Of a DNA stretch of 64,000 bases, positions 6,740 to 42,100 are shown piece after piece (within the stretch, counting starts at the first letter, position 1; every line of letters begins with the position of its first letter). Source of the stretch: a virus; the IMG/VR virus record IMGVR_UViG_3300044802_000046, positions 3,568 through 67,567 of that record. One strand, written 5' to 3'. The position numbers were made by a program, and so were the translations under genes. The notes beneath the pieces were generated by a model. That model was not told where the DNA came from and did not search any database. It saw only the letters and a program-made list of their open reading frames with translations.

Positions 6740-8143
6740 ATGAATATTATCTTCAAAAACAAAGGAATCCTCTCATTGTTGGACATAACAACAATGGGGG
6801 ACTCCATTAAAAGAGACGATCCGACAAAGATCGGAAAGTTTGACTCTGGGCTTAAGTACGCTCTCGCTGTTCTGTACCGAAACGGAATAGAAGTTAGTAT
6901 ATTAAGTGGCGATTCTGTATACGAATTCGATACAACTACTATTACGGCTGATGATTCAACCAAAAAAACAAAAGAATTATTAGTTGTAAATGAGTATAAA
7001 GTGAATTCAGAACCTTCTGAAAGTATATGTAAAAAATGTGCTGATATTTATTATAATGGATATGTTAATACAGGACCGCATAATCTATGCGAAGGAGCTC
7101 ACTGTTCAGATATGAATGACTCAGATGAAGATCCTATAATTCACGTAACAGCATTTAGCCCTCAGCTTGGGTATGAATGGAAGGTTTGGATGGCGATACG
7201 CGAATTATATAGCAATTGCCTTGACGAAGGCGGGGAGGTAGAGTTTGTCAATACCAATATTTCGCCCAATGCAATACCGGGTTCAACTATTATATTTATT
7301 CGTAATAAAACATCGCTTATTATTAATGAAATAATAGAAAATTGGAATAAATATTTTCTTAAAGATGAAACGCCTATTTACGAATACGACGATCTAAAGA
7401 TATTCGAAAATTCAGACCCCGATTCGCATTTAAGATTATATAAAAACAAGATTCTTATACACGAAAACAAAAGTGTTAAAAGTAGATTCGTATATGATTT
7501 CAAAAGAGCTTCTATTGATGAGATGAGACTTCTTAATGATTATAATTCATACGAAAGTCATATTGAAAAATGTATGTGCTATTGTAAGGACAAGGCTTTT
7601 ATTCAAAAATTAATAGAACGTCATGATGAAGATTTATTTGAATCTAAATTATCCTTCTACTGTTCATTGAGTGACGAATGGGTTAATGTTATTAATGACA
7701 CATACCCCTCCCTTACAGAAAAGGGTGAAGTATTTGTGACAAATTCGAATCTATTTACAAAACTCATGGAGGACCCACGAATAGATATTGGATTCAAGAA
7801 AGTGAAAGTTAATTCCCCCAGCTATTGTTGGGCAGATACTAAGGTTGAGATAATAAATCCAAGCTTAAGTGTAACTAAAGAAAAGACATTTGAAGAAGAA
7901 ATTTTGGGAATATGCAAAGCAAATAATTTTACTGTCACGTTCCCGGTTATCGAATCTAAAATAAGTGGACTTACCTGTGTGGCCGATGTTCATAAAAAAG
8001 TCATATATGTGTCTAAAAATTTCAAAGATTCGGATATGTGGGAGATGGTAAAGTCTCAATTTAGAATTGAATCAGATGACGATCCGGAATATTGTTTTAA
8101 GCAATACGCAAAACTTATTAATAATAAGTATAATGGACAATAA
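6740..8143 (+). CDS. GHKL/HATPase-like protein with permuted motif order
   Basis: IGKFDSGLKYA (G2-like) precedes AIRELYSNCLDEGG (N-box); ATG 6740 follows the upstream stop. Confidence 0.6.
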   Translation: MNIIFKNKGILSLLDITTMGDSIKRDDPTKIGKFDSGLKYALAVLYRNGIEVSILSGDSVYEFDTTTITADDSTKKTKELLVVNEYKVNSEPSESICKKCADIYYNGYVNTGPHNLCEGAHCSDMNDSDEDPIIHVTAFSPQLGYEWKVWMAIRELYSNCLDEGGEVEFVNTNISPNAIPGSTIIFIRNKTSLIINEIIENWNKYFLKDETPIYEYDDLKIFENSDPDSHLRLYKNKILIHENKSVKSRFVYDFKRASIDEMRLLNDYNSYESHIEKCMCYCKDKAFIQKLIERHDEDLFESKLSFYCSLSDEWVNVINDTYPSLTEKGEVFVTNSNLFTKLMEDPRIDIGFKKVKVNSPSYCWADTKVEIINPSLSVTKEKTFEEEILGICKANNFTVTFPVIESKISGLTCVADVHKKVIYVSKNFKDSDMWEMVKSQFRIESDDDPEYCFKQYAKLINNKYNGQ

Positions 8144-8309
8144 AAACAGTAATGAAAGGTCTGAATTGTCAAACATTGTCACAAAGACAATGTCGGAAAG
8201 TGAGCGTAAGGAATGGATATACAACCATGTAGATGATACAATTATTGGGTTGATTATATATTCAATGAATGATAGTGAGGTTGAAAATGAATTAAATAAA
8301 ATAAAATGA
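8133..8309 (+). CDS. small hypothetical protein
   Basis: ATG 8133 overlaps the upstream gene end; stop overlaps the next start (ATGA). Confidence 0.5.
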   Translation: MDNKNSNERSELSNIVTKTMSESERKEWIYNHVDDTIIGLIIYSMNDSEVENELNKIK

Positions 8310-8596
8310 ATAGTAATTTAAAGCACACGCCGGGGCCTTGGTTCGCAGTTGAGTATGCCGGAAGATATAGTTTTCAAAGAAAGGATGAATATGGGGGCCC
8401 GGACTTGCTTGACCAGGATTCATGCAGTAGGGCATGTTACAATGCAAAATTAGCTGCTGCTGCACCCGAACTTTTAAAAGAATTAATGTATCTCGTAAGA
8501 TTATTAGAACCTTTAGAAAGAGAAGGCTCTTTAGATGTTCCCGGTTTAGTAACATTAAATGGAGCTAGAAATGCAATAAAAAAAGCAATAGAATGA
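8306..8596 (+). CDS. conserved small phage protein (KHTPGPW...NAKLAAAAPELL family)
   Basis: Both signature motifs present. Confidence 0.85.
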   Translation: MNSNLKHTPGPWFAVEYAGRYSFQRKDEYGGPDLLDQDSCSRACYNAKLAAAAPELLKELMYLVRLLEPLEREGSLDVPGLVTLNGARNAIKKAIE

Positions 8597-9105
8597 AAAT
8601 ACAAACATGGGTTGACGTAAACGAATTTGGCAGAAAGGAAATACACGAAAGAGAAAAATTCCAAGATGCCATTTCGAATCTTAAATATGGCCGATACATA
8701 TACACTATTGAAAAGATTGAAAACATAAGAAGTCTCGACCAAAACAATGCAATGTGGGGCATTCCTTATGCATTTTTCAATAGGGTATTGAAAGAAACCG
8801 GCCATTTTGAGAATCCTTCCAAGGAGCAAACCCATGAATTTTGTATGTACTATTGCCTTCCTGATGATTACAAGGAAAGGCTTAAAAAGGAATGGGAAGC
8901 TATACCGTCTTTAAGGGATATAAGAACCGGTGAGCTATTTAAAACACCATTCCGGTTAACAACTAAGAAAATGAGTGTTGAAGATTCAATGCACTATTAC
9001 TCAAACATGCAGAAATTCTATGCCGAGAACTTTGCATCAGGCCGGGAAGAGGATTTTATTCCAGATCCTATCCCGGCTCTTTCTAAGAAAAATAAAACAA
9101 AGTAA
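8593..9105 (+). CDS. NinB-like recombination protein
   Basis: RSLDQNNAMWG and TTKKMSVED..Y motifs. Confidence 0.7.
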   Translation: MKIQTWVDVNEFGRKEIHEREKFQDAISNLKYGRYIYTIEKIENIRSLDQNNAMWGIPYAFFNRVLKETGHFENPSKEQTHEFCMYYCLPDDYKERLKKEWEAIPSLRDIRTGELFKTPFRLTTKKMSVEDSMHYYSNMQKFYAENFASGREEDFIPDPIPALSKKNKTK

Positions 9106-9112
9106 GATAAAA

Positions 9113-9243
9113 TTATAACGTTGGTAATAATAAATGTATGGGATTTAAAATCAGTAACCTATCTACATACGCCGAAATAAATTAAAGGTACAATTGCACA
9201 ATTTATCACTACCGCGCATATGTTTTTTTATTGTGTGTTAGCG
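9113..9243 (+). repeat. attC-like hairpin site E1
   Basis: TAAC (9116-9119)-GTTG-imperfect stem with G.T pairs...stem-GT-GTTAGCG (9237-9243); interior similar to E2. Confidence 0.7.
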
Positions 9244-9261
9244 GTTGTTATTCAATTTTTT

Positions 9262-9465
9262 ATGAAAACAAATAAATCAAGACTTGAAGTAGGAGATAAA
9301 GTAGAATTTCACAGCGGAAATTTTGAAGGTTTGACAGGGGAAATAATTCATACAGACTGGAATTCGAAGCGCGAAAAATCGATCTACGGAATAAGACATA
9401 CGGTTGAATTGTCAAATGGAGAAATTGGATATATAGAAAAAGCCGAACATTGGCACTTCATTTAA
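9262..9465 (+). CDS. cassette-1 ORF, small KOW/SH3-like protein (67 aa)
   Basis: LEVGDKVEFHSGNFEGLTGEII; ATG 9262 lies just after E1 and the stop abuts E2. Confidence 0.75.
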   Translation: MKTNKSRLEVGDKVEFHSGNFEGLTGEIIHTDWNSKREKSIYGIRHTVELSNGEIGYIEKAEHWHFI

Positions 9466-9469
9466 TAAT

Positions 9470-9598
9470 TATTAACGTTTATAATATCAAATGGCTGGGA
9501 TTCGGTGCTACTAACTTATCTCTCGCCACAAAACTAAAAGGTAGCAAGCTGGCTAATAAACCCACTGACACCCAGCTATTTTATATTATGTGTTAGCG
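9470..9598 (+). repeat. attC-like hairpin site E2
   Basis: TAAC (9473-9476)-GTTT-ATAATATCAAATGGCTGGG...CCCAGCTATTTTATATTAT-GT-GTTAGCG; 17/19 Watson-Crick stem. Confidence 0.8.
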
Positions 9599-9608
9599 GT
9601 AGTTATTT

Positions 9609-9992
9609 ATGGAACATTTAGAATTTTCTGAAAAATTAAATCAATTAGGCTGTTCATTTAGAAGCACGAATATTGAAAATAAAGTTAAAACTATTGAAAT
9701 ACCCAACACATTTGGAAAATCAGAATTTGTTGAGATTAAGAATTTTCAATGTGAATATGTTGGGCTTAACGCATTTTCAAGACCAACGCCACTTCAAGCT
9801 GTGATAAGCGAAGCAATAGATATTGATAGCTGGAAACATAGTTGGCACAATGAAATAAAACCAGAGAATTATGAAAAATTCAGAGAGATTATTCAGGAGA
9901 AAATGATTAAAAGAGCGGAAGAAATGGACTTTTTATCAACTGTCTATTTTCAATTGCAACATGAAATATCAAATCGGAGTGCGGATTTATAA
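9609..9992 (+). CDS. cassette-2 ORF, hypothetical protein (127 aa)
   Basis: ORF fills the space between E2 and E3. Confidence 0.75.
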   Translation: MEHLEFSEKLNQLGCSFRSTNIENKVKTIEIPNTFGKSEFVEIKNFQCEYVGLNAFSRPTPLQAVISEAIDIDSWKHSWHNEIKPENYEKFREIIQEKMIKRAEEMDFLSTVYFQLQHEISNRSADL

Positions 9993-9996
9993 TTAC

Positions 9997-10086
9997 CACT
10001 AACGATGGGCATAAGAAACGTGGCCTTGCAACCACTTTCAAAATGCCTACCAGCTTTCCGGCCATGTTTTTTATGCCGTGTTATGT
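9997..10086 (+). repeat. attC-like hairpin site E3
   Basis: CACTAAC-GATG-GGCATAAGAAACGTGGCC...GGCCATGTTTTTTATGCC-GT-GTTATGT; 16/18 Watson-Crick plus 2 G.T. Confidence 0.8.
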
Positions 10087-10148
10087 ACTGGCGCATTATC
10101 AGGCACATAGCACACAACGAAGCACGGTAATTTTATTATTTTTTTAGG

Positions 10149-10328
10149 GTGGGTTATTTTTCTTTAAAATTACTTGTCAGTATTGTACAAGATATATCCG
10201 CCATCCTTGGTTTAAAAACTTTAACCTCTTTTTCGAAAAGTGAAAAAATATCATATCCAGCTGCTGCAAAAAGAAAGACTGATAGATTAAAAATAGATAC
10301 TATTGAGTTTATAATTGACAATGAATAA
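10149..10328 (+). pseudogene. 59-aa HTH-like ORF, possibly 5'-truncated
   Basis: GTG-start frame ...LKTLTSFSKSEKISYPAAAKRK...EFIIDNE; stop 2 nt before the next ATG; no in-frame ATG. Confidence 0.45.
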
Positions 10329-10330
10329 TT

Positions 10331-10669
10331 ATGACAAAAATAAAAATGTTTCACATATCTAAAGAGCAAAAAATAATTGCCCTGAAAGAGGAGATGAGGA
10401 AAACCTTCATTACAATACCTGATGGACGAATTAGCCTACTTGACTTATGCGAAAAGGTTGGCATTAAAAACAGGATTACGTACTTCAACTTTATTGAGAA
10501 GAGAGTTGAAAGTAAAAGTAGAACAATTAACAATGACTATAAAGTAGTTAAAACCGTTCACGATCGTGGATTTGTATTTAACAATGGAATTGAAATTAGA
10601 AAGGTTGACAATAACATATTTAACCTATATCCGAGTATTGATATAATTGAAAGAAAAGAACGTAAATAA
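10331..10669 (+). CDS. hypothetical protein
   Basis: 112-aa ORF in operon. Confidence 0.65.
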   Translation: MTKIKMFHISKEQKIIALKEEMRKTFITIPDGRISLLDLCEKVGIKNRITYFNFIEKRVESKSRTINNDYKVVKTVHDRGFVFNNGIEIRKVDNNIFNLYPSIDIIERKERK

Positions 10670-10676
10670 TGAAACC

Positions 10677-10850
10677 ATGAGAAATTTAAAGCAAATTTTA
10701 CACAGACTTTATAGGGTTATAGGATTTTCATTGACCGTAACTTTTGGGACTATAATTATAATACCTGCGTGTGTAGGTTATTACATAATTACCGGGAAGG
10801 ATGTATTGCCAAGAGTGACTGCTCGCATATTTGACTTCTGGGGATTTTAA
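10677..10850 (+). CDS. small membrane protein
   Basis: Hydrophobic segment; ATG 10677. Confidence 0.6.
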   Translation: MRNLKQILHRLYRVIGFSLTVTFGTIIIIPACVGYYIITGKDVLPRVTARIFDFWGF

Positions 10851-10852
10851 TT

Positions 10853-11203
10853 ATGGCAAAAATAGCACAAGGCTGGCAATGTCCAGTATGTTTAACGGTC
10901 CATGCACCGTCAGTAACTCAATGTTCGTGCCAGGGAATCAGCCCTGGCACAACAACTAAAAAGACAAGGGAATTATTTACCCCTCCAGATATTCAAGATG
11001 TCTACTTTTATTGCAAGGAAAGAAAGAATGATGTAGATCCGGATAAGTGGTTCAACTTTTATACAGCTAAGAACTGGATGATCGGTAAAAATAAAATGAA
11101 AGACTGGAAGGCCGCAGTAAGAACTTGGGAAAAGAGTAGTAACTCTTCTGTAGGACAGGATACTAAAATAAGTATAAGATTGCCACAATTTAAAAAACTT
11201 TAG
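10853..11203 (+). CDS. Zn-ribbon plus replisome-organizer/helicase-loader C-terminal domain
   Basis: GWQCPVC..HAP....CSC then FTPP...V..YC.ER...FY....W.IGKNKMKDWKAAVRTWE; directly upstream of DnaB. Confidence 0.75.
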   Translation: MAKIAQGWQCPVCLTVHAPSVTQCSCQGISPGTTTKKTRELFTPPDIQDVYFYCKERKNDVDPDKWFNFYTAKNWMIGKNKMKDWKAAVRTWEKSSNSSVGQDTKISIRLPQFKKL

Positions 11204-11206
11204 AGT

Positions 11207-12658
11207 ATGGATATTAATTTGGGTAAAATACCACCTCAATGCATCGAAATAGAGGAATCTTTACTCGCTGACATTATTGCATTTTCGGATCTATTGGACG
11301 AGGCAGTAGATTTGAAGGTAGAATACTTCTATAAAGATGCGCATCAAAAAATATTCTCCGCTATTCTGGAGCTTAATTCTAGGAATCTCCCAATAGACCT
11401 TATGACAGTTTGTGATCAAATGAGTAAAACAAACACATTGGATGAAGTTGGGGGGAGATATTTCTTAACTCAGCTAATGAGTGTCGGAGCGGTATATCAC
11501 AATATTCCTTTTTTTGTCGCCCTTATTAAGGAAAAGGCTTTTAAGAGAGAGATGATTCGGGTTGGAATGGAGATTGTCAATAAGGCTTATGACGATTTGG
11601 TGGATGTTGAGGATTTAATGAGTGAATCGGTAAATATGGTCGATGCCGCTTCGAATATTGTATCTACTGAATCGGATAGAGATTTATCTTTCCCAAAATT
11701 ACTTAAGAAAGCATCTGATCAAGCCCAACAAAGGGAAATATTGCGTAAAAAAGGAGAGGTTCTTGGGATAAAAACCCCTCTTAAAAAACTAGATCAGTTT
11801 ACCGGAGGATGGAGAGGGGGTGATCTTATAACTATAGGGGCCCGGCCGTCTACTGGTAAAACAGCTCTGGCCGTAGCGATAGCAAAGGAGGATGCGAGGT
11901 GTGGTGGGCACCCCAATTTTTATTCTTTAGAAACTATTGACGTTAAAATAGCGGATAGGATATTTGCCGGAGAAGCCGATGTGAGCTATGATAATTACAC
12001 CATGGGCTTGCTAACTCCAGGAGAATGGGTAAAGCTTTCTAATGCCGAATATAATTTATCTAAAATGGATATAATAATCGACGACGGGTTTGTAGCCTCT
12101 ATAGATACTATAAAAAGTCGATCTAGGAAGCTTAAAAAACAAGGAAGGTGTACCATGATTATCATAGATTACTTACAGCTTGTCAAAGAAAATATTAAAG
12201 GAGGAAATCGAGAGCAGGAAATTTCAACCATAAGCAGGAAGTGCAAACAAATGGCTAAGGAATTAAATGTGCCTGTATTTATTTTGGCTCAATTAAACAG
12301 GAAGGTTGAAGACAGGCAAAGCAGAAGACCGCAGATGAGCGACATTAGAGAGTCAGGATCGGCCGAGCAAGACTCTGATTTAGTGATACTTCCGTATAGA
12401 CCGGCTCAATACGGAATCCTAGAAGACGAAAACGGAAACAGTACTGTGGGCAGAGGGATTTTAATCTTGGCTAAAAATAAAGAGGGTGATACCGGTGATA
12501 TAGATTTTGGTCACAATAAGTCTTTGACTCGAATATTCGATGTTGATGATGATCCTTTGCCTATAATAAGCAAAGAAAAAGCTCATCCGGACACAAACAC
12601 TGCTCCGGGATATTCAATAGAATCAAACAGGGATTTAGAATCAAACGAAGATTTTTAA
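11207..12658 (+). CDS. dnaB: replicative DNA helicase DnaB
   Basis: PPQ.IEIEE N-domain, Walker A GARPSTGKT, IIDYLQL, LAQLNR, SDIRESGSAEQDSD. Confidence 0.97.
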   Translation: MDINLGKIPPQCIEIEESLLADIIAFSDLLDEAVDLKVEYFYKDAHQKIFSAILELNSRNLPIDLMTVCDQMSKTNTLDEVGGRYFLTQLMSVGAVYHNIPFFVALIKEKAFKREMIRVGMEIVNKAYDDLVDVEDLMSESVNMVDAASNIVSTESDRDLSFPKLLKKASDQAQQREILRKKGEVLGIKTPLKKLDQFTGGWRGGDLITIGARPSTGKTALAVAIAKEDARCGGHPNFYSLETIDVKIADRIFAGEADVSYDNYTMGLLTPGEWVKLSNAEYNLSKMDIIIDDGFVASIDTIKSRSRKLKKQGRCTMIIIDYLQLVKENIKGGNREQEISTISRKCKQMAKELNVPVFILAQLNRKVEDRQSRRPQMSDIRESGSAEQDSDLVILPYRPAQYGILEDENGNSTVGRGILILAKNKEGDTGDIDFGHNKSLTRIFDVDDDPLPIISKEKAHPDTNTAPGYSIESNRDLESNEDF

Positions 12659-12660
12659 TT

Positions 12661-13269
12661 ATGGAAACTTTAACTATTGAAACCGTAAAAATAGAGGTGG
12701 CTAAATTTTTTAACCTTCCAGTCGAAAGACTATCGGAAGATACCCGAAAAAAAGAAATTGTAAAGCCGAGACAGATTGCTATGTTTTTATCTAGGGAATT
12801 GAAAATAGGGTCTGATGAGTTTATAGGAAGTAGTTTTAATAGAGATAGGACCTCGGTTGTTCATTCATGTAAAACAGTAGTTTCGGATTGTGCAACAAAT
12901 AAAAAGTATGCCCATGAATTTGAAGAAATAGATGAAAAATTAAAAGTACTATTTAATATCGAGAGATGGAGGCCGATTTATGGGTTCGAAGATTATTACG
13001 AAGCATCTAATTTTGGAAATATAAGGTCGGTAAACAGGGTTATAAATTTAAAAAATGGATTTAAACTTAAACGTAAAGGAAAAATAAGATCATGTTCTAA
13101 TGAAATATGTTTAAATTTTAAAGGTAAAATATTGAGAAGAAATTACTTAAGGTTAATAGCCTCTACCTGGATACCAAATCCTCACAATCTGAGATTTGCA
13201 ATAAAAAAAGACATTCATGGAAATAATCATATAGATAACATAGAATGGTCCGATCGTATGCGAAGTTAA
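12661..13269 (+). CDS. DnaA C-terminal (domain IV) fused to NUMOD4 and a degenerate HNH domain
   Basis: RKKEIVKPRQIAMFL...IG..FNRDRTSVVHS; then ERWRPIYGFEDYYEASNFGNIRS and NNHIDNIEW. Confidence 0.8.
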   Translation: METLTIETVKIEVAKFFNLPVERLSEDTRKKEIVKPRQIAMFLSRELKIGSDEFIGSSFNRDRTSVVHSCKTVVSDCATNKKYAHEFEEIDEKLKVLFNIERWRPIYGFEDYYEASNFGNIRSVNRVINLKNGFKLKRKGKIRSCSNEICLNFKGKILRRNYLRLIASTWIPNPHNLRFAIKKDIHGNNHIDNIEWSDRMRS

Positions 13270-32240: not shown

Positions 32241-32986
32241 GATTGCTTCCCTTCTACTTCGCGAACGTAAGCTCTGACTTGCTCGTCTTTAAGCTGGATT
32301 CCAACCTTTTGTAATACTTCATTGCAAAATTCTATATGCCATAAAGGATTCCACTCCAATTCAACTGTGTTTGATGTTACGGTAGTACCCGCTGTCTGCC
32401 CTGCTGAACCAACTTCCCCAGTTGTCAACAAATGAGTTGCGCCTACAGCAAGGTATATCAAGTTGAAATTTGCATCAAAATAATAATCGAAAACAGGAAT
32501 CGCCGGGTTTTTCATGAATACAAATTCGGCAGCAGTGATGTTTAAAGGAAAAACTTTTATTAAATTACCCAATATCATAGCCGCTGGATAGTCTTCCAGT
32601 TGAGGGGCCATTAAATTTGTTCTACGAATGGTCAAATCCCTGTCCGTCAATATTTCTATTTCACGATAAGCCCCATTATATAGCGCTATCATTGACAACC
32701 AATAAGCATAACTATTTACCAAGGTCGTCATATCGAAAGATCCGGCTGTAAAAGTTATGTTTTCCCTTACATGAAACTCCCTCAATGCCATATGCTCATA
32801 AAGAGTCTCGTTAAAAGGCATCTTAGATTGAATAGCTAATAATTGAGCCTCCTGAACCTTTCTATTATACATATTAGTATTGGACGCGGGAAATATAAAA
32901 TTCAACTGATCCGGCTTAAGAGTACTTCCGGAATTCTCTTTTACGCATATATAGTTAACGTATTTTAATATCTGATTCAGTGTCAT
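32237..32986 (-). CDS. tail ring protein
   Basis: Shares EILT, YP, ELEW...H motifs with 32990-33676. Confidence 0.7.
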   Translation of the reverse strand: MTLNQILKYVNYICVKENSGSTLKPDQLNFIFPASNTNMYNRKVQEAQLLAIQSKMPFNETLYEHMALREFHVRENITFTAGSFDMTTLVNSYAYWLSMIALYNGAYREIEILTDRDLTIRRTNLMAPQLEDYPAAMILGNLIKVFPLNITAAEFVFMKNPAIPVFDYYFDANFNLIYLAVGATHLLTTGEVGSAGQTAGTTVTSNTVELEWNPLWHIEFCNEVLQKVGIQLKDEQVRAYVREVEGKQS

Positions 32987-36141: not shown

Positions 36142-39100
36142 TATGAAAAAATTTGATTTTGTAAAATATTTTGACTGTTAATATATATATCTGGATTTAC
36201 AATCAGGTCTTGTTTTCCGGAGGTCATAACTCGATTTCCTGTACCAGTAATAGATACGGCTACAAAAAGACCGTTTCCATAGGCGACTGAAGGCCAATTA
36301 TTATCTGCCGCACTAGTTCGGGATGTCCAGTTTATGCCGTCCGGAGAGGTCATGACTCGATCACCAGTGCCAGTATGACTTACAGCTACAAATAGTCTAT
36401 TTCCATACGTTATTGATGCCCAGTTATTGTCTACTGAGTTAGTACGGGAGGTCCATGTTATTCCGTTCGGAGAGGTCATAACCCTATTTCCGGTTCCACT
36501 TGAACTTACTGCTACGAAAAGACCGTTACCATAGGCCACAGAATTCCATATATTATCAGCCGCGCTCGTACGAGAGGTCCAGGTTATACCATCAGGGGAA
36601 CTCATTACTCGATTTCCGGTTCCGTCTTGGCTTACAGCTACGAAAAGACCATTTCCATAGGTGACGGAAAGCCACCCATTATCCGCTGCACTCGTGCGGG
36701 ATACCCAATTTACCCCATCGGAAGAAGTCATTACTCGGTTTCCGGTTCCACTTGAACTTACCGCTACGAAAATACCGCCGCCATAGGCTACTGAATTCCA
36801 ATTGTTATCTACTGCGCTCGTGCGATAGGCCCAGTTTATACCATCAGGAGAAGTCATTACTCGATTTCCAGTACCAGAGTCGCTTACGGCTACGAATATA
36901 CCATTGCCATAAGCAACAGACTCCCAGTTATTATCCGCCGAGCTCGTACGGGAGGTCCAGTTAATTCCGTCGGGAGAGGTCATTACTCGATTACCAGTTC
37001 CGCTAGAACTTACGGCTACGAAAAGGCCGTTTCCATAGACAATAGAACGCCAATCGTTATCTACCGCACCCGTACGTGAAGTCCAAGCTATCCCTTTTGA
37101 AATAATATTCCCGGCAACTTCTAATTTTTCAGATCCCGTACCTGGAACTACTCCAATTCCTACATTGCCATAAAGTATGCTCTTAACTATAGTCGAAGTT
37201 CCTAATGTAACTGAGTTAGATCCATTTCCAACAGCATTGTATCCTATTACAATTTCATTAACCCCTCCGTCGGCCAATGCTTTGGTTGACGAACCGATAT
37301 AAACAGATGTGGTCGATGTGATATTAGCGACAGAACCTCCGGTAATCCATCTTCCCGAATTATACCCGATAGCAACATTGTCATTTCCGGTTATACTGTA
37401 TAATGAATTTATACCAAGGGCTACATTTGATCCCGAAGTTATGTTATCATGCAAGGCATTAGTACCTATTCCTAAATTTCCAGCCCCTGTCGTATTTGAA
37501 AATAATGACAAAACACCTACCCCAACATTATCGGTACCTGTCGTGTTTGCCGTCAATGATTGTGAGCCTATAGCCGTATTGCCCCCAGCGGTTGACACTA
37601 ATAAAGCATTATTTCCAATAGCGACAGACGCGCTTCCTGTTATTAATCCTTTCAAGGCTTGAAATCCGACCGCGACATTACTGCTTCCACTAGTGTGGGC
37701 TAACATTGAATTGGAGCCTATGGAAACATTGTTAGATCCATCGCTAACAAGCATGGCACTATACCCAATAGCGGTATTATTTCCATTCGTAGTTGCCCGG
37801 AGCGCCCAAGTACCTACCGCAGTATTATAACTCCCGGAAACATTTGTCAATAAAGCTTCGTATCCAATAGCTACGGTAGAGCCTCCTGTGGAAACATTAT
37901 AAGCGGCATGGTACCCAACAGCAGTACTATAACTAAATGTAGTTAAGCTTTTAAGAGCGCCTACACCGACCGCTGTGCTATAAAATGTTGTTGTGGCTGA
38001 ATATAATGCTTGATAACCTATAGCTACATTATCATGACCTGTAGTTATCGACAATAATGAACCTGTTCCTATTCCTAAATTGTAAGACCCTTGAGATCCT
38101 GTGCCGCTCGCGCTAGTTCCGCCATTTCCAATAAAAAGATTATTCCCAGTTAGTCCAGAAGCTTTAAATGTGTTTATGGATATAGCATCTCCATTTGTAT
38201 TTACATCGACAAATCCACTTGAATACAAATCCTTAACGTAAAGATCCCCATCATAATTAAGCCTTGTGGTATGAATAGGAACGACCGTACCTGTATAAAA
38301 ATATCCGTCATTTTGTGTTGATCCAGATGTTTTTAAAACAGAAGTTGTAAGATTATTAGCGGTCATTCTCGCTCTGTAGGTAATAGTACCAAATATTAGG
38401 TCATTAACAAGTACTGATCCGCCTACATTTAATTGGTTTGTCCCAGTCTGATAAGCATCATAATCTGCGCCTTCAAGAGTACAGAAATAAGCATTTACTA
38501 TTGAATTGTTTGTAACAGAAGAAGTTGACGCTACTGCAATATTCGTTGTCGCCCCACCTGGAAGTGCCTTACAAACAGAAGTAGATAAATTTAACGTAAG
38601 AGTTTGAGCGCAATTTGAATTATCAGCATAAAAGCACCATCCATTATCTCCGCCAGTTCCCGATTGCACTATCCCTGTTACGGAAAAACAATCACAAACA
38701 GAGGGGCCGGTTGTTAAAGTATTATTATAAAAATATAGCCCTATTGCATCGCTATCTGCCGAAATGACATAAAATGTTATATTCCTTAATACGGCATTTG
38801 AACCATATAGCATAATTCCCTGTGCTAATCCAGAACAATTTACAATTACATCTACATTCGTTAAAACAATACCATCTAAATTGTTTGAAGTTGTTACCCC
38901 CGTGCTATCGCCGCCTGTTAAATTTATTGATAAATGCGCCAACCTTACATTTGTACTTTGTATGCTAAAACAAACAAGGCCAGAAATACTAGAGCTTTGT
39001 ATTAAAGTGCCGTGTCCAGCAGCAGAAGGTATTGTATAGTACCCTGCATTGCCTTGTCCAACAATATTTAATGCCTTGTTTATGGTTATACCGCTAGTTA

Positions 39101-42100
39101 TAGTATATTCACCACTCGCTAATATTAAAGTATCTCCAGCTACAGCGTTGTTTACATAAGTTTGAATATCTCCATCTATAGGAACATATATTACATTACC
39201 ACCAATCCAGTCCGCTTCTTTATATAAAGATTTATTTACCCAAAAATTTCCATCATAATTAAGTCTTGTAGTATGAACCGGATCTGTAGTGCTGCTATCA
39301 AAACTACCGGAAACTTGAGAAGTAAATGGAGCGTATGCCGATCCTGTCCATTGCAACACATTATCAGATATAGCTACCCAACTTTCAGTCGTGCCATTTG
39401 TTGTTAAATAATTACCATTATGTCCTGTTTGGGATGGAAGTCCAGAATATTTAGAATCAAATATAATCCAGTCTCCAGAAGATAGGGCTCCATTAGTTGA
39501 TGACGAAGATAATCCAAGAGATAATATTTGTCCTGTAGCTATACTTAATCCATTTGCAGTTCCAATAGTTACTTCAGCATGGGTATTGACTAATGATCCA
39601 TTACTGTATATGGCTGTAGCATAAAAATAACCATCATAATTTACTCTATTTGTAGCTGTTGGATTAGTCGTACCTTTATAAAGCTTACCAGCACTGGACA
39701 CTCCTCCGGCTTCAGTTTTATCGGTATAAAACCTGTAATTTATATTTGTGGTATCAAACTTTGCAAAATCATCCGTAAATGGAGCGAATGGAATTGTTGT
39801 ATAAGTTCCGTTATCAGCTAAATATTGATTCCCTGATCCACTAGTAACTATTACTGAAGCCTTATTCCAAGTTGTTTTATTCCCGGCTGTTATGGATACA
39901 ACTGCTGCATAATCTGTAAAATCACCTTTCAAAGAATTGTACGTACCATCCATTAACTGAACTAACTTGACCGGAGAACCAGTATTAGCTACGCCATCTT
40001 GGAATGTAATATTATTTGAAGAATCGGCCATTATACTATTTACCGCAGATCTGAATAATACACGATGCGAAGTCGGGAATGTAAGATCGGCATTAAAAGT
40101 CAAAAGTCTATTTGAAAACTCACCGTATATTAATGGTGTACTAGTGTTTGTATTGTGAATGTATAATTTATCGTTACCAGTTTCATTGTCTCCGGCATTA
40201 GGTCCTAATAATAAGTTTCCATTTTTATATCTTAAATATGAACTATTAAAATATGTCGCCTCTATATTCCCATTAACTGTTAATGCTTCGTCAAGAGTTG
40301 ACGGAGAGTTTACCCCTACAAATCCTGCATAATAAATACCTCCAGACATACTAGTCCAGAAATTGGTGGCCCCACTTATCAAAGATGCTAATGTTACCGA
40401 TCCCGATACGGCATCCGTAAACACCATATTATTAGAAACATCCTTTGATATATAAGTAGTTAAATTTTCTACATAATGAGTTATAGAAACTATTTGATCT
40501 ACAGTAAGCCTCTTATTTACATTATCAAATAAGAAATTAGTGTCCCCGGAAGGAACTGTTCCATTTATATAAACAACCTGAGTGTCTAATCCGGCAGATA
40601 GAGTTATAGGCTTATACGTTCCATCATCAGCTAAAAATTGACTTCCAGTTCCAGTGTTAATAACACTTGCGGCTGGAGACGATGTTGATAATGCATTGGT
40701 AATGCCATATCCGGCTAATGTTGTTGGAGTGGATGTAATCGCACTCCAAGCCCATGTTTTTGCATCTACCTCAGTTTTTGTATATGCATTAGTTATTCCA
40801 TATCCAGATATGGTAGTAGGAGTAGAAGTTATGGCACTCCAAAGCCAAGTCTTATTATCAACCTCCGTCTTTGTGTAGGCATTTGTAATCCCATACCCAG
40901 CTATAGTCGTCGGAATTCCAGATGTTATTTTACTCCAAGGTAAGGCAGGAATATCAGATGCTGACAGATCTACACCTCCTGTGACTAATCCTTTTGAATC
41001 ATAAGATATTTTAGTGTGGGTAGCTCCGGTTATAGGAGAATTTCCAGCCATAGCATCCGTGATACCATAACCGGATATAGTAGTAGGGTGATTCGTTATA
41101 TTTCCCCAGTGAACCGAGGCTTGCCCTGAAGTCTGGAGATTAGTTTTAGTATATACATTTGCAGCTAATGCGTATCCAGCAACTGCGTGATTGCCCCATC
41201 CAAATGCAGTTTGCCAGTTAGTTATATTAGCCCCTGTAATGGCTGTAACTGAAGCGTAATCGTTAAAATCTGACTTAAGAGCATATCCTCCAGAACTAAA
41301 AGTGTGAAAATTACCATCCCCGCCTAAATAATCTGTGGCATTACCACTTAACGCAGTCAGCATGCCTCCGCTTGAGGTAGTAGCTAGGCTGAATGTTAAA
41401 ACTTGAGATGAATTTATACTTACGCCGTATGGCGGAGTTGCTATTGATACCGGTGGATGCGATGACCCTCCAGTATTATTTACAAATGGAATTATCTGGG
41501 CCGGGAATGTTATGGTTACGTAATCACTTAACTCTTTAACTATATCTACAGTTCTTAAATATGCGGTTAATAAGTCATTATAAAATAATGCTAAATCATA
41601 TTCTGAATAAGCTGTATTTATCTTTGTTAACGATATTTCTATCCTGTAAGCAAGTTCCTTGTTTGAAGCCCTGGCCTGATCGAAAAGTATCTTAAAGTTT
41701 TCTATGTATCCCCTAATAACATTCATGTCATTAAGGTATGCTGTTACGGTTTTAGTAGCGGTTAATGTTGCGTTTATTATTAAACCGTCACTCATCAAAT
41801 AAGTTAGTATGGTAGTAATCTGACTAGTCCATACCCCACTCCAAATATTAGGAACATAACTTATTGTCTGATTACTATTTGACACTACAGACAATGGACT
41901 ACCTACTGGAGGTGTAACTGTATGAATTCTTGATATACTAGCATACGATCCATATATACTACTATCGACAGAAGAAAATACAGAATTATACCCATCCGCT
42001 GTTTGGGTTATATCGATCGCCGGTATTATGAACGAATAAGTATACGTATGACTTGTTGTAGATATAGATCCGTCTACAGAATAAAGTACATGGTAATCTA

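Follow-up and report, generated by a model that had tools for sequence, protein, structure and literature searches.

The DNA segment 9106-10171 of the viral stretch analysed here is, in our judgement, very probably an orphan and partly decayed array of site-specific gene cassettes, a member of an integron-like system of Bacteroidota phages and their hosts. The window, by which we mean the whole stretch of 64 000 nucleotides, is the 67.6 kb viral record IMGVR_UViG_3300044802_000046 minus its first 3,567 bases, and the record is judged to be about 95% complete. The segment holds three hairpins, E1, E2 and E3, every one of which has TAAC at its left and GTTA at its right. Among bacteria the integron is the textbook device for capturing genes, and a single enzyme family, IntI, defines it; its attC sites are roughly 57-141 nt long and the recombined strand carries two extrahelical (bulged) bases.

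In our model a cassette unit reads, in the direction of its open reading frames (ORFs), as the TAAC at which it is cut, an unpaired spacer of 4-5 nt, an 18-19 bp stem in which two G.T positions are conserved, a variable loop, a 2 nt spacer, GTTA with a 10 nt extension, one or more small ORFs and finally the complement of the extension, ending in TAAC. Excision as a circle would bring the two extensions together and lengthen the hairpin, which would explain why the extensions are complementary across the ORF. A recombinase would catalyse the exchange by acting, as IntI does, on folded single strands, with circles as the intermediates. New units would enter at a docking site, TAAC|nAyTATATAaAC in relatives, which in phages with the whole system would lie 37-60 nt upstream of the gene for an Xer-like recombinase of 270-283 aa; the oldest units would therefore be those furthest from that end. 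The window phage would have lost its docking end by a deletion that truncated the third cassette, E1 would be the oldest and by now eroded hairpin of the array, and the cassettes would be movable only with an enzyme supplied by a co-infecting phage or the host.

Cassette turnover and array layout

The sister contig L001 was found through its NinB-like protein, which is 93% identical to that of the window. At the DNA level their identity is 85% as far as 9105 and once more from 10172 onwards, and the stretch in between is 1066 bp long in the window versus 5215 bp in L001. On the left the variable region begins at the stop codon of the NinB-like gene, and the homology ends exactly there, at 9105. 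Right after the same stop codon L001 carries a different and longer row of about nine units with the TAAC...hairpin...GTTA arrangement, including two DNA methyltransferases. The cassettes of the two phages are wholly different, bar a short leader that cassette 3 of the window has in common with one L001 cassette, which contains three ORFs (9800-10563). Metagenome contigs also show a relative diverging from the window right after the NinB-like gene, and a contig of run X2 spans 10114-10177 and then continues like L001.

A second comparison involves L010, an otherwise unrelated contig whose sole long match with the viral record (blastn) is 532 bp at 87.8% identity, covering 9473-10003. After its homologue of this unit, L010 continues as non-hairpin sequence. 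The original prediction likened these units to integron cassettes and proposed, as a check, to look for homologues with the same arms in unrelated genomes. The comparisons support the former, with gain, loss and exchange as precise units, and L010 provides such a homologue for cassette 2. The array is laid out as follows.

8593-9105, +: NinB/Orf-like recombination mediator of 170 aa (PHROG 72, NinB/Orf, E 7.9e-06); upstream backbone gene
9106-9119, +: left backbone half-site GATAAAATTATAAC, directly after the NinB-like stop codon and ending in a TAAC core
9120-9236, +: hairpin E1, an eroded copy of the E2 type with direct repeats with E2 at both ends; heads cassette 1
9237-9250, +: GTTA core and 10 nt start extension of cassette 1, GTTAGCGGTTGTTA
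9262-9465, +: ORF1, cargo of cassette 1, 67 aa, with a weak KOW-like signal
9463-9476, +: end extension and TAAC core of cassette 1, TAATAATTATTAAC, with five transitions; boundary at or inside this TAAC
9477-9591, +: hairpin E2, intact, of the class of about 122 nt, arms 9481-9507 and 9563-9589; heads cassette 2
9592-9605, +: GTTA core and start extension of cassette 2, GTTAGCGGTAGTTA
9609-9992, +: ORF2, cargo of cassette 2, 127 aa; the same cassette is present whole in L010 and, cut by the contig end, in L017
9990-10003, +: end extension and TAAC core of cassette 2, TAATTACCACTAAC, 12/14 complementary to 9592-9605
10004-10079, +: hairpin E3, intact, of the class of about 85 nt, arms 10008-10025 and 10060-10077; heads the third cassette
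10080-10171, +: truncated cassette 3, consisting of GTTATGTACTGGCG and a 5' leader (about 10114-10177), fused to the backbone

The half-site GATAAAATTATAAC (9106-9119) is presumed, from the array ends of relatives, to be what survives of the left half of the former docking site. At the other end, cassette 3 is cut at about 10171-10177 and fused to the remnant of a backbone gene; no end extension matching its start was found. The original prediction had joined TATAAC to GTTATG as the empty site, a proposal that is not supported, as the GTTATG at 10080 begins this third, truncated cassette. The E2 inverted repeat is 27 nt long (81%) and that of E3 18 nt (89%); when folded as single-stranded DNA and compared with shuffles they give z values of -1.99 and -2.46, respectively, and the hairpin scanner described below scores them at 19/20 and 18/20 pairs. 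There is one ORF in each of the two complete cassettes. ORF1 reached the Pfam family KOW4_SPT5 at E 0.0075, under its cut-off, had no match in PHROGs and gave weak leads only in the ESM Atlas; ORF2 had no match in Pfam, PHROGs or the ESM Atlas.

Across the right limit runs a 59-aa frame with a GTG start (10149-10328), which is the C-terminal remnant of a backbone gene. Its counterpart in L001 (11659-11885) has its own ATG and an internal TAG, and the gene has seemingly been damaged differently in the two phages.

Staggered complementarity, hairpin family and the cut

The original prediction was built on four 14-mers and on the claim that the sequence outside each hairpin pairs with the far end of the same cassette. 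A sequence check found all four in place (9592-9605, 9990-10003, 9237-9250 and 9463-9476), with the claimed complementarity of 12/14 for cassette 2 and 9/14 for cassette 1, the five mismatches of the latter all being transitions; the ORF list likewise puts the stop codons, 9463-9465 and 9990-9992, at the first triplet of the respective 14-mer. In chance tests with shuffles and random pairs the complementarity of cassette 2 is above expectation. The reverse complement of its start, with no more than two mismatches, occurs at three sites in the 64 kb, namely the two cassette starts and 9990-10003, compared with a mean of 0.35 matches in shuffles, none of which (0/100) reached three. When the invariant TAAC and GTTA are set aside, 8/10 Watson-Crick pairs and one T.G are left, and 8/10 is reached by 0.8% of 2317 random pairs, these being start/end combinations drawn from the hairpin family. 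The flanks of E3 pair with each other at 0/10 positions.

The same comparison, which sets the 10 nt that follow GTTA against the 10 nt in front of the next TAAC, was extended to the family. At least 8/10 was reached by 16 of 35 consecutive start/end pairs, against 19 of 2317 random pairs and none of 49 same-hairpin pairs, and most neighbours with low scores lie across long gaps, in which the scanner probably missed elements. A single T.G recurs in the staggered pairings of the family, about ten bases from the core. These figures support staggered pairing as a family-wide rule.

Circularization had been predicted to rebuild a longer and better-paired hairpin, and for cassette 2 the fold energies agree. 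Joining the cassette end to its hairpin brought the DNA fold energy of the + strand from -15.5 to -19.7 kcal/mol and that of the - strand from -13.7 to -19.3 kcal/mol, a gain of 4-6 kcal/mol, and in the fold of this circle junction all 14 outer bases are paired. Cassette 1 had been described as the older and more decayed of the two. It does look older, with an eroded hairpin and the greatest distance from the end that in related arrays holds the docking site and the recombinase.

The hairpin family was collected with a scanner that demanded AAC, a 20 nt stem with at least 17 pairs and then GTTA, within 50-175 nt. It returned 99 hairpins on both strands of the loci and genome versus one in shuffled sequence. 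Both G.T positions, 5 nt apart, are present in 53 of 86 distinct elements. The stem takes the form 6-7 bp, G.T, 4 bp, G.T, 6 bp, with no gaps over 18-19 bp, and the spacing is fixed, at 11-12 nt between AAC and the first G and at 9 nt between the first T and GTT. Around the G.T positions the stem is 92-100% Watson-Crick with three or four pair types at most positions, and it is therefore kept by compensatory change. The length from AAC to GTT is 83-125 nt, in two classes of about 85 and about 122 nt, with conserved stems and variable loops. E2 and E3 fit this architecture (TAAC, a 4-5 nt spacer, the G.T stem, a 2 nt spacer, GTTA and the staggered extension), and E1 is an eroded copy.

As an exact 16-mer the right arm of E2 matched 34 viral stretches, about 15 of them with the whole element, including L001/L008 (one contig), and elements nearly identical to E2 occur in at least 12 other viral contigs. 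A 19-mer matched 12 genome contigs, of which four (small contigs, from Bacteroidota metagenome-assembled genomes (MAGs) or drafts) carry arrays. When the ORFs of 23 loci were clustered, only cassette-borne methyltransferases and a few backbone genes were common to 3-5 loci, and no recombinase was present within about 6 kb on either side of these loci.

In one aquatic metagenome run (X3; window 9452-9664) the E2-type hairpin had a summed contig depth above 1000. Many contigs there end in the hairpin and have diverse flanks, which marks it as a highly repeated, assembly-breaking element in that community.

Where the units are cut was another point on which the original prediction had to be revised. 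It placed the crossover at G|TT to the right of the hairpin, so that a unit would be an ORF followed by a hairpin; the comparisons put the cut at the left TAAC instead. The unit common to the window and L010 (9473-10003) consists of TAAC, E2, ORF2 and TAAC. E2-type hairpins are always followed by an extension like GTTAGCGGTAG and their left flanks vary; alignment starts cluster at TAAC (20 at -4) and the ends lie about 19-22 nt beyond GTTA. Arrays end, in the ORF direction, with an extension and TAAC followed by A/T-rich, non-hairpin sequence of the TATATA type, which resembles a double-stranded copy of the stem base. The shared unit, the linkage of hairpin and extension and the array ends together lead us to place the cut at the left TAAC, with the hairpin heading its ORF. 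The predicted circle junction of cassette 2 is thus about 10003|9477 and not 10080/9593. Read on the other strand, the cut has the classical G|TT geometry, to which the phage ORFs run antisense. A motif of 24-25 nt that follows some array ends, CACAGTTT...CCAATG, is absent from the window at up to three mismatches.

A second small array of the same phage lies to the left of the window (L054 2155-3230), where one hairpin (2155-2278) is intact and another, near 2850-2935, is eroded. The array holds a frameshifted copy of a 75-aa cassette ORF known from L001 (8118-8345). An A/T-rich leader of about 40 nt, ACCTAAATAAT...TTTAAAATTTT...ATG, is conserved behind two of its unit ends (AAT or AAC) and comes after the last L001 cassette as well.

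The recombinase and competing explanations

Matches to the tyrosine recombinase family PF00589 were found in three of 16 array-bearing viral records, among them two of the three records that are at least 90% complete. The viral enzyme is Xer-like, 270-283 aa long, and in 3/3 records its gene starts 37-60 nt after the terminal TAAC of the array, on the ORF strand. In relatives the last TAAC is succeeded by sequence of the docking type, which in all three of these records directly adjoins the recombinase gene; the docking end is kept in L001, as TAAC|ACCTATATAAAC..., and is gone from the window.

The phage enzyme shares 39% identity with the catalytic part of a protein of 477 aa from a Bacteroidota MAG contig (G008:C482). 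On that contig the protein has as its neighbours a docking-like sequence and cassettes that lie between hairpins of this kind. Of 301 Bacteroidota genomes sampled, 71 have matches to it at E<=1e-60, and like hairpins lie near its homologues in seven of eight neighbourhoods. On the integron-integrase model TIGR02249 the array-adjacent recombinases score 208-214 bits (cut-off 265) and leave model positions of about 180-238 unmatched; this region is that of the IntI-specific insertion, which neither the phage enzyme nor the 477-aa homologue has. An 'XerA/integron integrase' model was just passed by one of three homologues scanned. None of five array-bearing Bacteroidota genomes had a protein above the TIGR02249 cut-off, although these are MAGs or drafts, in which absence is not shown.

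Of 36 phage cassettes, 35 have their longest ORF on the strand that carries the G.T side of the hairpin. Chromosomal arrays next to the 477-aa recombinase (L063, L094-L099 and L101) have it on the other strand in 5/5 cassettes scored, a small sample. This argues for a G.T asymmetry that belongs to the recombination site and not to the transcript, and host and phage cassettes appear to be mirror-built.

Several observations weigh against reading the segment as a site-specific cassette array. No tyrosine recombinase was found in the approximately 95% complete genome of the window phage (PF00589, E<=1), which makes its array an orphan member, and the enzyme is absent from 13 of the 16 viral records, many of them fragments but one (G000) about 95% complete. 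That the recombinase moves the cassettes is inferred from its position beside the arrays. E1 folds no better than shuffles (z +1.33) and falls below the threshold of the hairpin scanner. The complementarity claimed for cassette 1 is 5/10 in Watson-Crick pairs, a level reached by 18% of random pairs, and by itself is not significant; with T.G allowed it rises to 9/10, which 1% of random pairs reach. The end of this cassette pairs nearly as well (4+4) with the right flank of E2 itself, because both cassettes begin with a nearly identical 14-mer, and the staggered and same-hairpin readings are therefore inseparable for cassette 1. Nor is there a gain in its joined fold (-8.1 to -9.2 kcal/mol). 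Assembled contigs of four of seven runs, in which rare junctions are invisible, contained no circle, empty-site or other joints. The prevalence of the cores and of G.T is partly built in, because the scanner requires the AAC and GTT cores and in some runs at least one G.T as well. Finally, with hairpins of the type GGCAATATGAAAAGTTGGCT neither flank travels with the hairpin, and homologous exchange within conserved arms is therefore possible too.

This last point leads to the idea that the array is reshuffled wholly by homologous recombination between conserved hairpin arms, with no site-specific enzyme. Promoter-early stem-loop (PeSL) cassettes of T4-type phages provide the precedent; their repeats bear promoters and are thought to recombine homologously. 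They share with the present array small accessory phage ORFs between repeated stem-loops, a hyperplastic region and proposed circles, and arms like the right arm of E2 are indeed identical over 16-19 nt in many contigs. Nevertheless, adjacent hairpins often differ in sequence and the unit limits still fall at TAAC, staggered complementarity across the ORF requires a fixed cut inside the stem base, and a dedicated recombinase gene stands at the array end in 3/3 recombinase-bearing viral records; PeSL cassettes differ in these respects. A scan of 8900-10500 found no sigma-70-like promoter inside the hairpins. We consider this explanation very improbable. The alternative raised in the original prediction, that each ORF has its own terminal inverted repeats and is MITE-like (a miniature inverted-repeat transposable element) or invertible, is scarcely credible. 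The 14-mers at both unit ends are inverted repeats, as it would have them, but the orientation is uniform in 35 of 36 cassettes, there is no transposase or invertase in the genome, and no inverted copy of a shared cassette was found (blastn on the plus strand only, with co-oriented arrays; all shared units matched).

A further alternative is a role at the level of RNA, in which G.T in the DNA would be G.U in the sense transcript. The hairpins might then be terminators, processing sites or stabilizers, with long-range stems looping out the ORFs. In 35 of 36 phage cassettes it is the sense strand that can form the wobble pairs, the decayed end of cassette 1 still pairs at 9/10 with T.G allowed, and the + strand folds slightly better than the - strand. 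However, chromosomal ORFs lie on the other strand (0/5 on the G.T strand), so that the asymmetry goes with the docking site and the recombinase and not with the transcript, no Rfam family was matched at E<=1 in 8000-11500 (nor any tRNA by ARAGORN), and the scan of 8900-10500 showed no terminator pattern at the hairpins and promoter-like sites that were rarer than in shuffles. The precise exchange of units between phages would also go unexplained. As the main function of the hairpins such a role is most unlikely; as a secondary one it is possible.

The literature proposes for phages that clusters of attC sites lacking integron integrases (CALINs) are serviced by the IntI of the host, and the present hairpins could be canonical attC sites in an ordinary CALIN. 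The attC hallmarks are present, with AAC...GTT cores, an imperfect palindrome with a variable centre and staggered complementarity. According to the accessible part of the report on phage CALINs (Qi et al., 2023; PMC9892861), IntI1 recombined into attI1 one of the two attC sites predicted in Polaribacter phage P12002L. Hairpins of the same architecture stand between methyltransferase genes of P12002L. Against this explanation, none of the five array-bearing Bacteroidota genomes exceeded the integron-integrase cut-off, the array-adjacent recombinases reach about 210 bits instead of 265 and leave positions of about 180-238 unmatched, the hairpin stems have no bulged bases, and in phages the ORF stands on the other side of the hairpin than in classical cassettes. 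We regard it as unlikely.

The orphan cassette array, which we prefer, may be part of something larger. Bacteroidota and their phages may run a parallel integron, with an Xer-like recombinase that has no IntI insertion, fixed mismatches in place of bulges and mirror-oriented phage cassettes, a proposal on which we are evenly divided. The fixed mismatches of the folded sites would mark the active strand. The mirror build of phage cassettes, with the hairpin before the gene and the cargo read towards the recombinase, would let phage transcripts serve to express that cargo, methyltransferases and small unknown genes. In the window we would then see a fossil array that outlasted the loss of the enzyme and the docking site.

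Known systems and other features of the genome

Among classical integrons the sedentary chromosomal ones come closest. In both systems the cassettes are site-specific, with AAC/GTT cores and an imperfect palindrome that has a variable centre and an unpaired spacer; the cores are complementary in the staggered manner; new cassettes enter beside the recombinase gene, which leaves older ones further away; and the tyrosine recombinase belongs to the Xer/IntI branch. The TAAC...GTTA pairs of the present sites bound an imperfect palindrome with a variable centre, which is the core arrangement of the attC type. Sedentary chromosomal integrons have long and homogeneous attC sites, the Vibrio cholerae repeats being an example. 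The present system differs from the classical one in several ways. Its recombinase is without the IntI-specific insertion and below the curated cut-off; two fixed G.T positions (C.A on the other strand) stand in place of extrahelical bases; the outer stem is a longer pairing of 14 nt; and the phage ORF comes after the hairpin and not before it, the classical order being found in the five chromosomal cassettes scored. The window itself, moreover, has neither a recombinase nor a docking site equivalent to attI.

The closest published parallel is the survey by Qi et al. (2023; PMC9892861), the accessible part of which reports 17 CALINs from a screen of 10,705 phage genomes, one of them in Polaribacter phage P12002L, and recombination by IntI1 of five of six phage attC sites. 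The likeness lies in a row of small genes with attC-type hairpins between them, in a phage without an integron integrase, and in DNA methyltransferases as common cargo, as in the relatives of the window. In P12002L hairpins of the present type (+ 38035-38089, 39122-39244, 32797-32924), with the same TAAC...GTTA cores and both G.T positions, stand between methyltransferase and Mom-like genes. The sites are treated there as ordinary attC, and the accessible part of the report describes no Xer-like recombinase, docking site or unit with the hairpin before the ORF. Against its 17 CALINs in 10,705 genomes, a single 16-mer led here to about 15 related viral contigs. Our literature search, which left subscription journals mostly outside, found no account of an Xer-like recombinase with a docking site or of the mirror orientation.

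We were struck that the system works by the logic of the integron and yet fails the tests of enzyme and site detail by which integrons are recognized. It is common in a phylum in which integron software finds almost nothing, the available part of the IntegronFinder 2.0 account reporting almost no integrons in Bacteroidetes, and it is shared between phages and hosts. The phage cargo, methyltransferases and many unknown small genes, is likely to serve counter-defence. If confirmed, the system would widen the definition of the integron, explain part of the hyperplastic regions of Bacteroidota phages and offer a ready catalogue of mobile phage accessory genes. The share of the window in this is modest, since its array is small, enzyme-less and partly decayed; its value lies in the sister phage, in which the cassettes at the same locus have been replaced wholesale.

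The early and replication genes of the window phage, including the NinB/Orf-like gene and DnaB (11207-12658), are on the + strand. A blastn search of 8000-11300 against 50,697 phage records gave no match and DnaB gave distant matches only by tblastn (<40% identity), with no close cultured relative. The DnaB of the window is 483 aa long and matches that of a sister phage (G001:C1:37154-39709, L051/L052), a single open frame of 866 aa, in two pieces about 1 kb apart, which suggests that the sister DnaB carries an intein-like insertion absent from the window protein. Directly after DnaB, a 202-aa ORF (12661-13269) combines the C-terminal helix-turn-helix of DnaA (PF08299) with NUMOD4 (PF07463), an unusual pairing. 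At the start of the genome, an open-ended ORF (L054 1-429) has about 13 tandem GTATAG(D/N)(E/Y) repeats and may encode a repetitive, fibre-like protein that the end of the contig interrupts.

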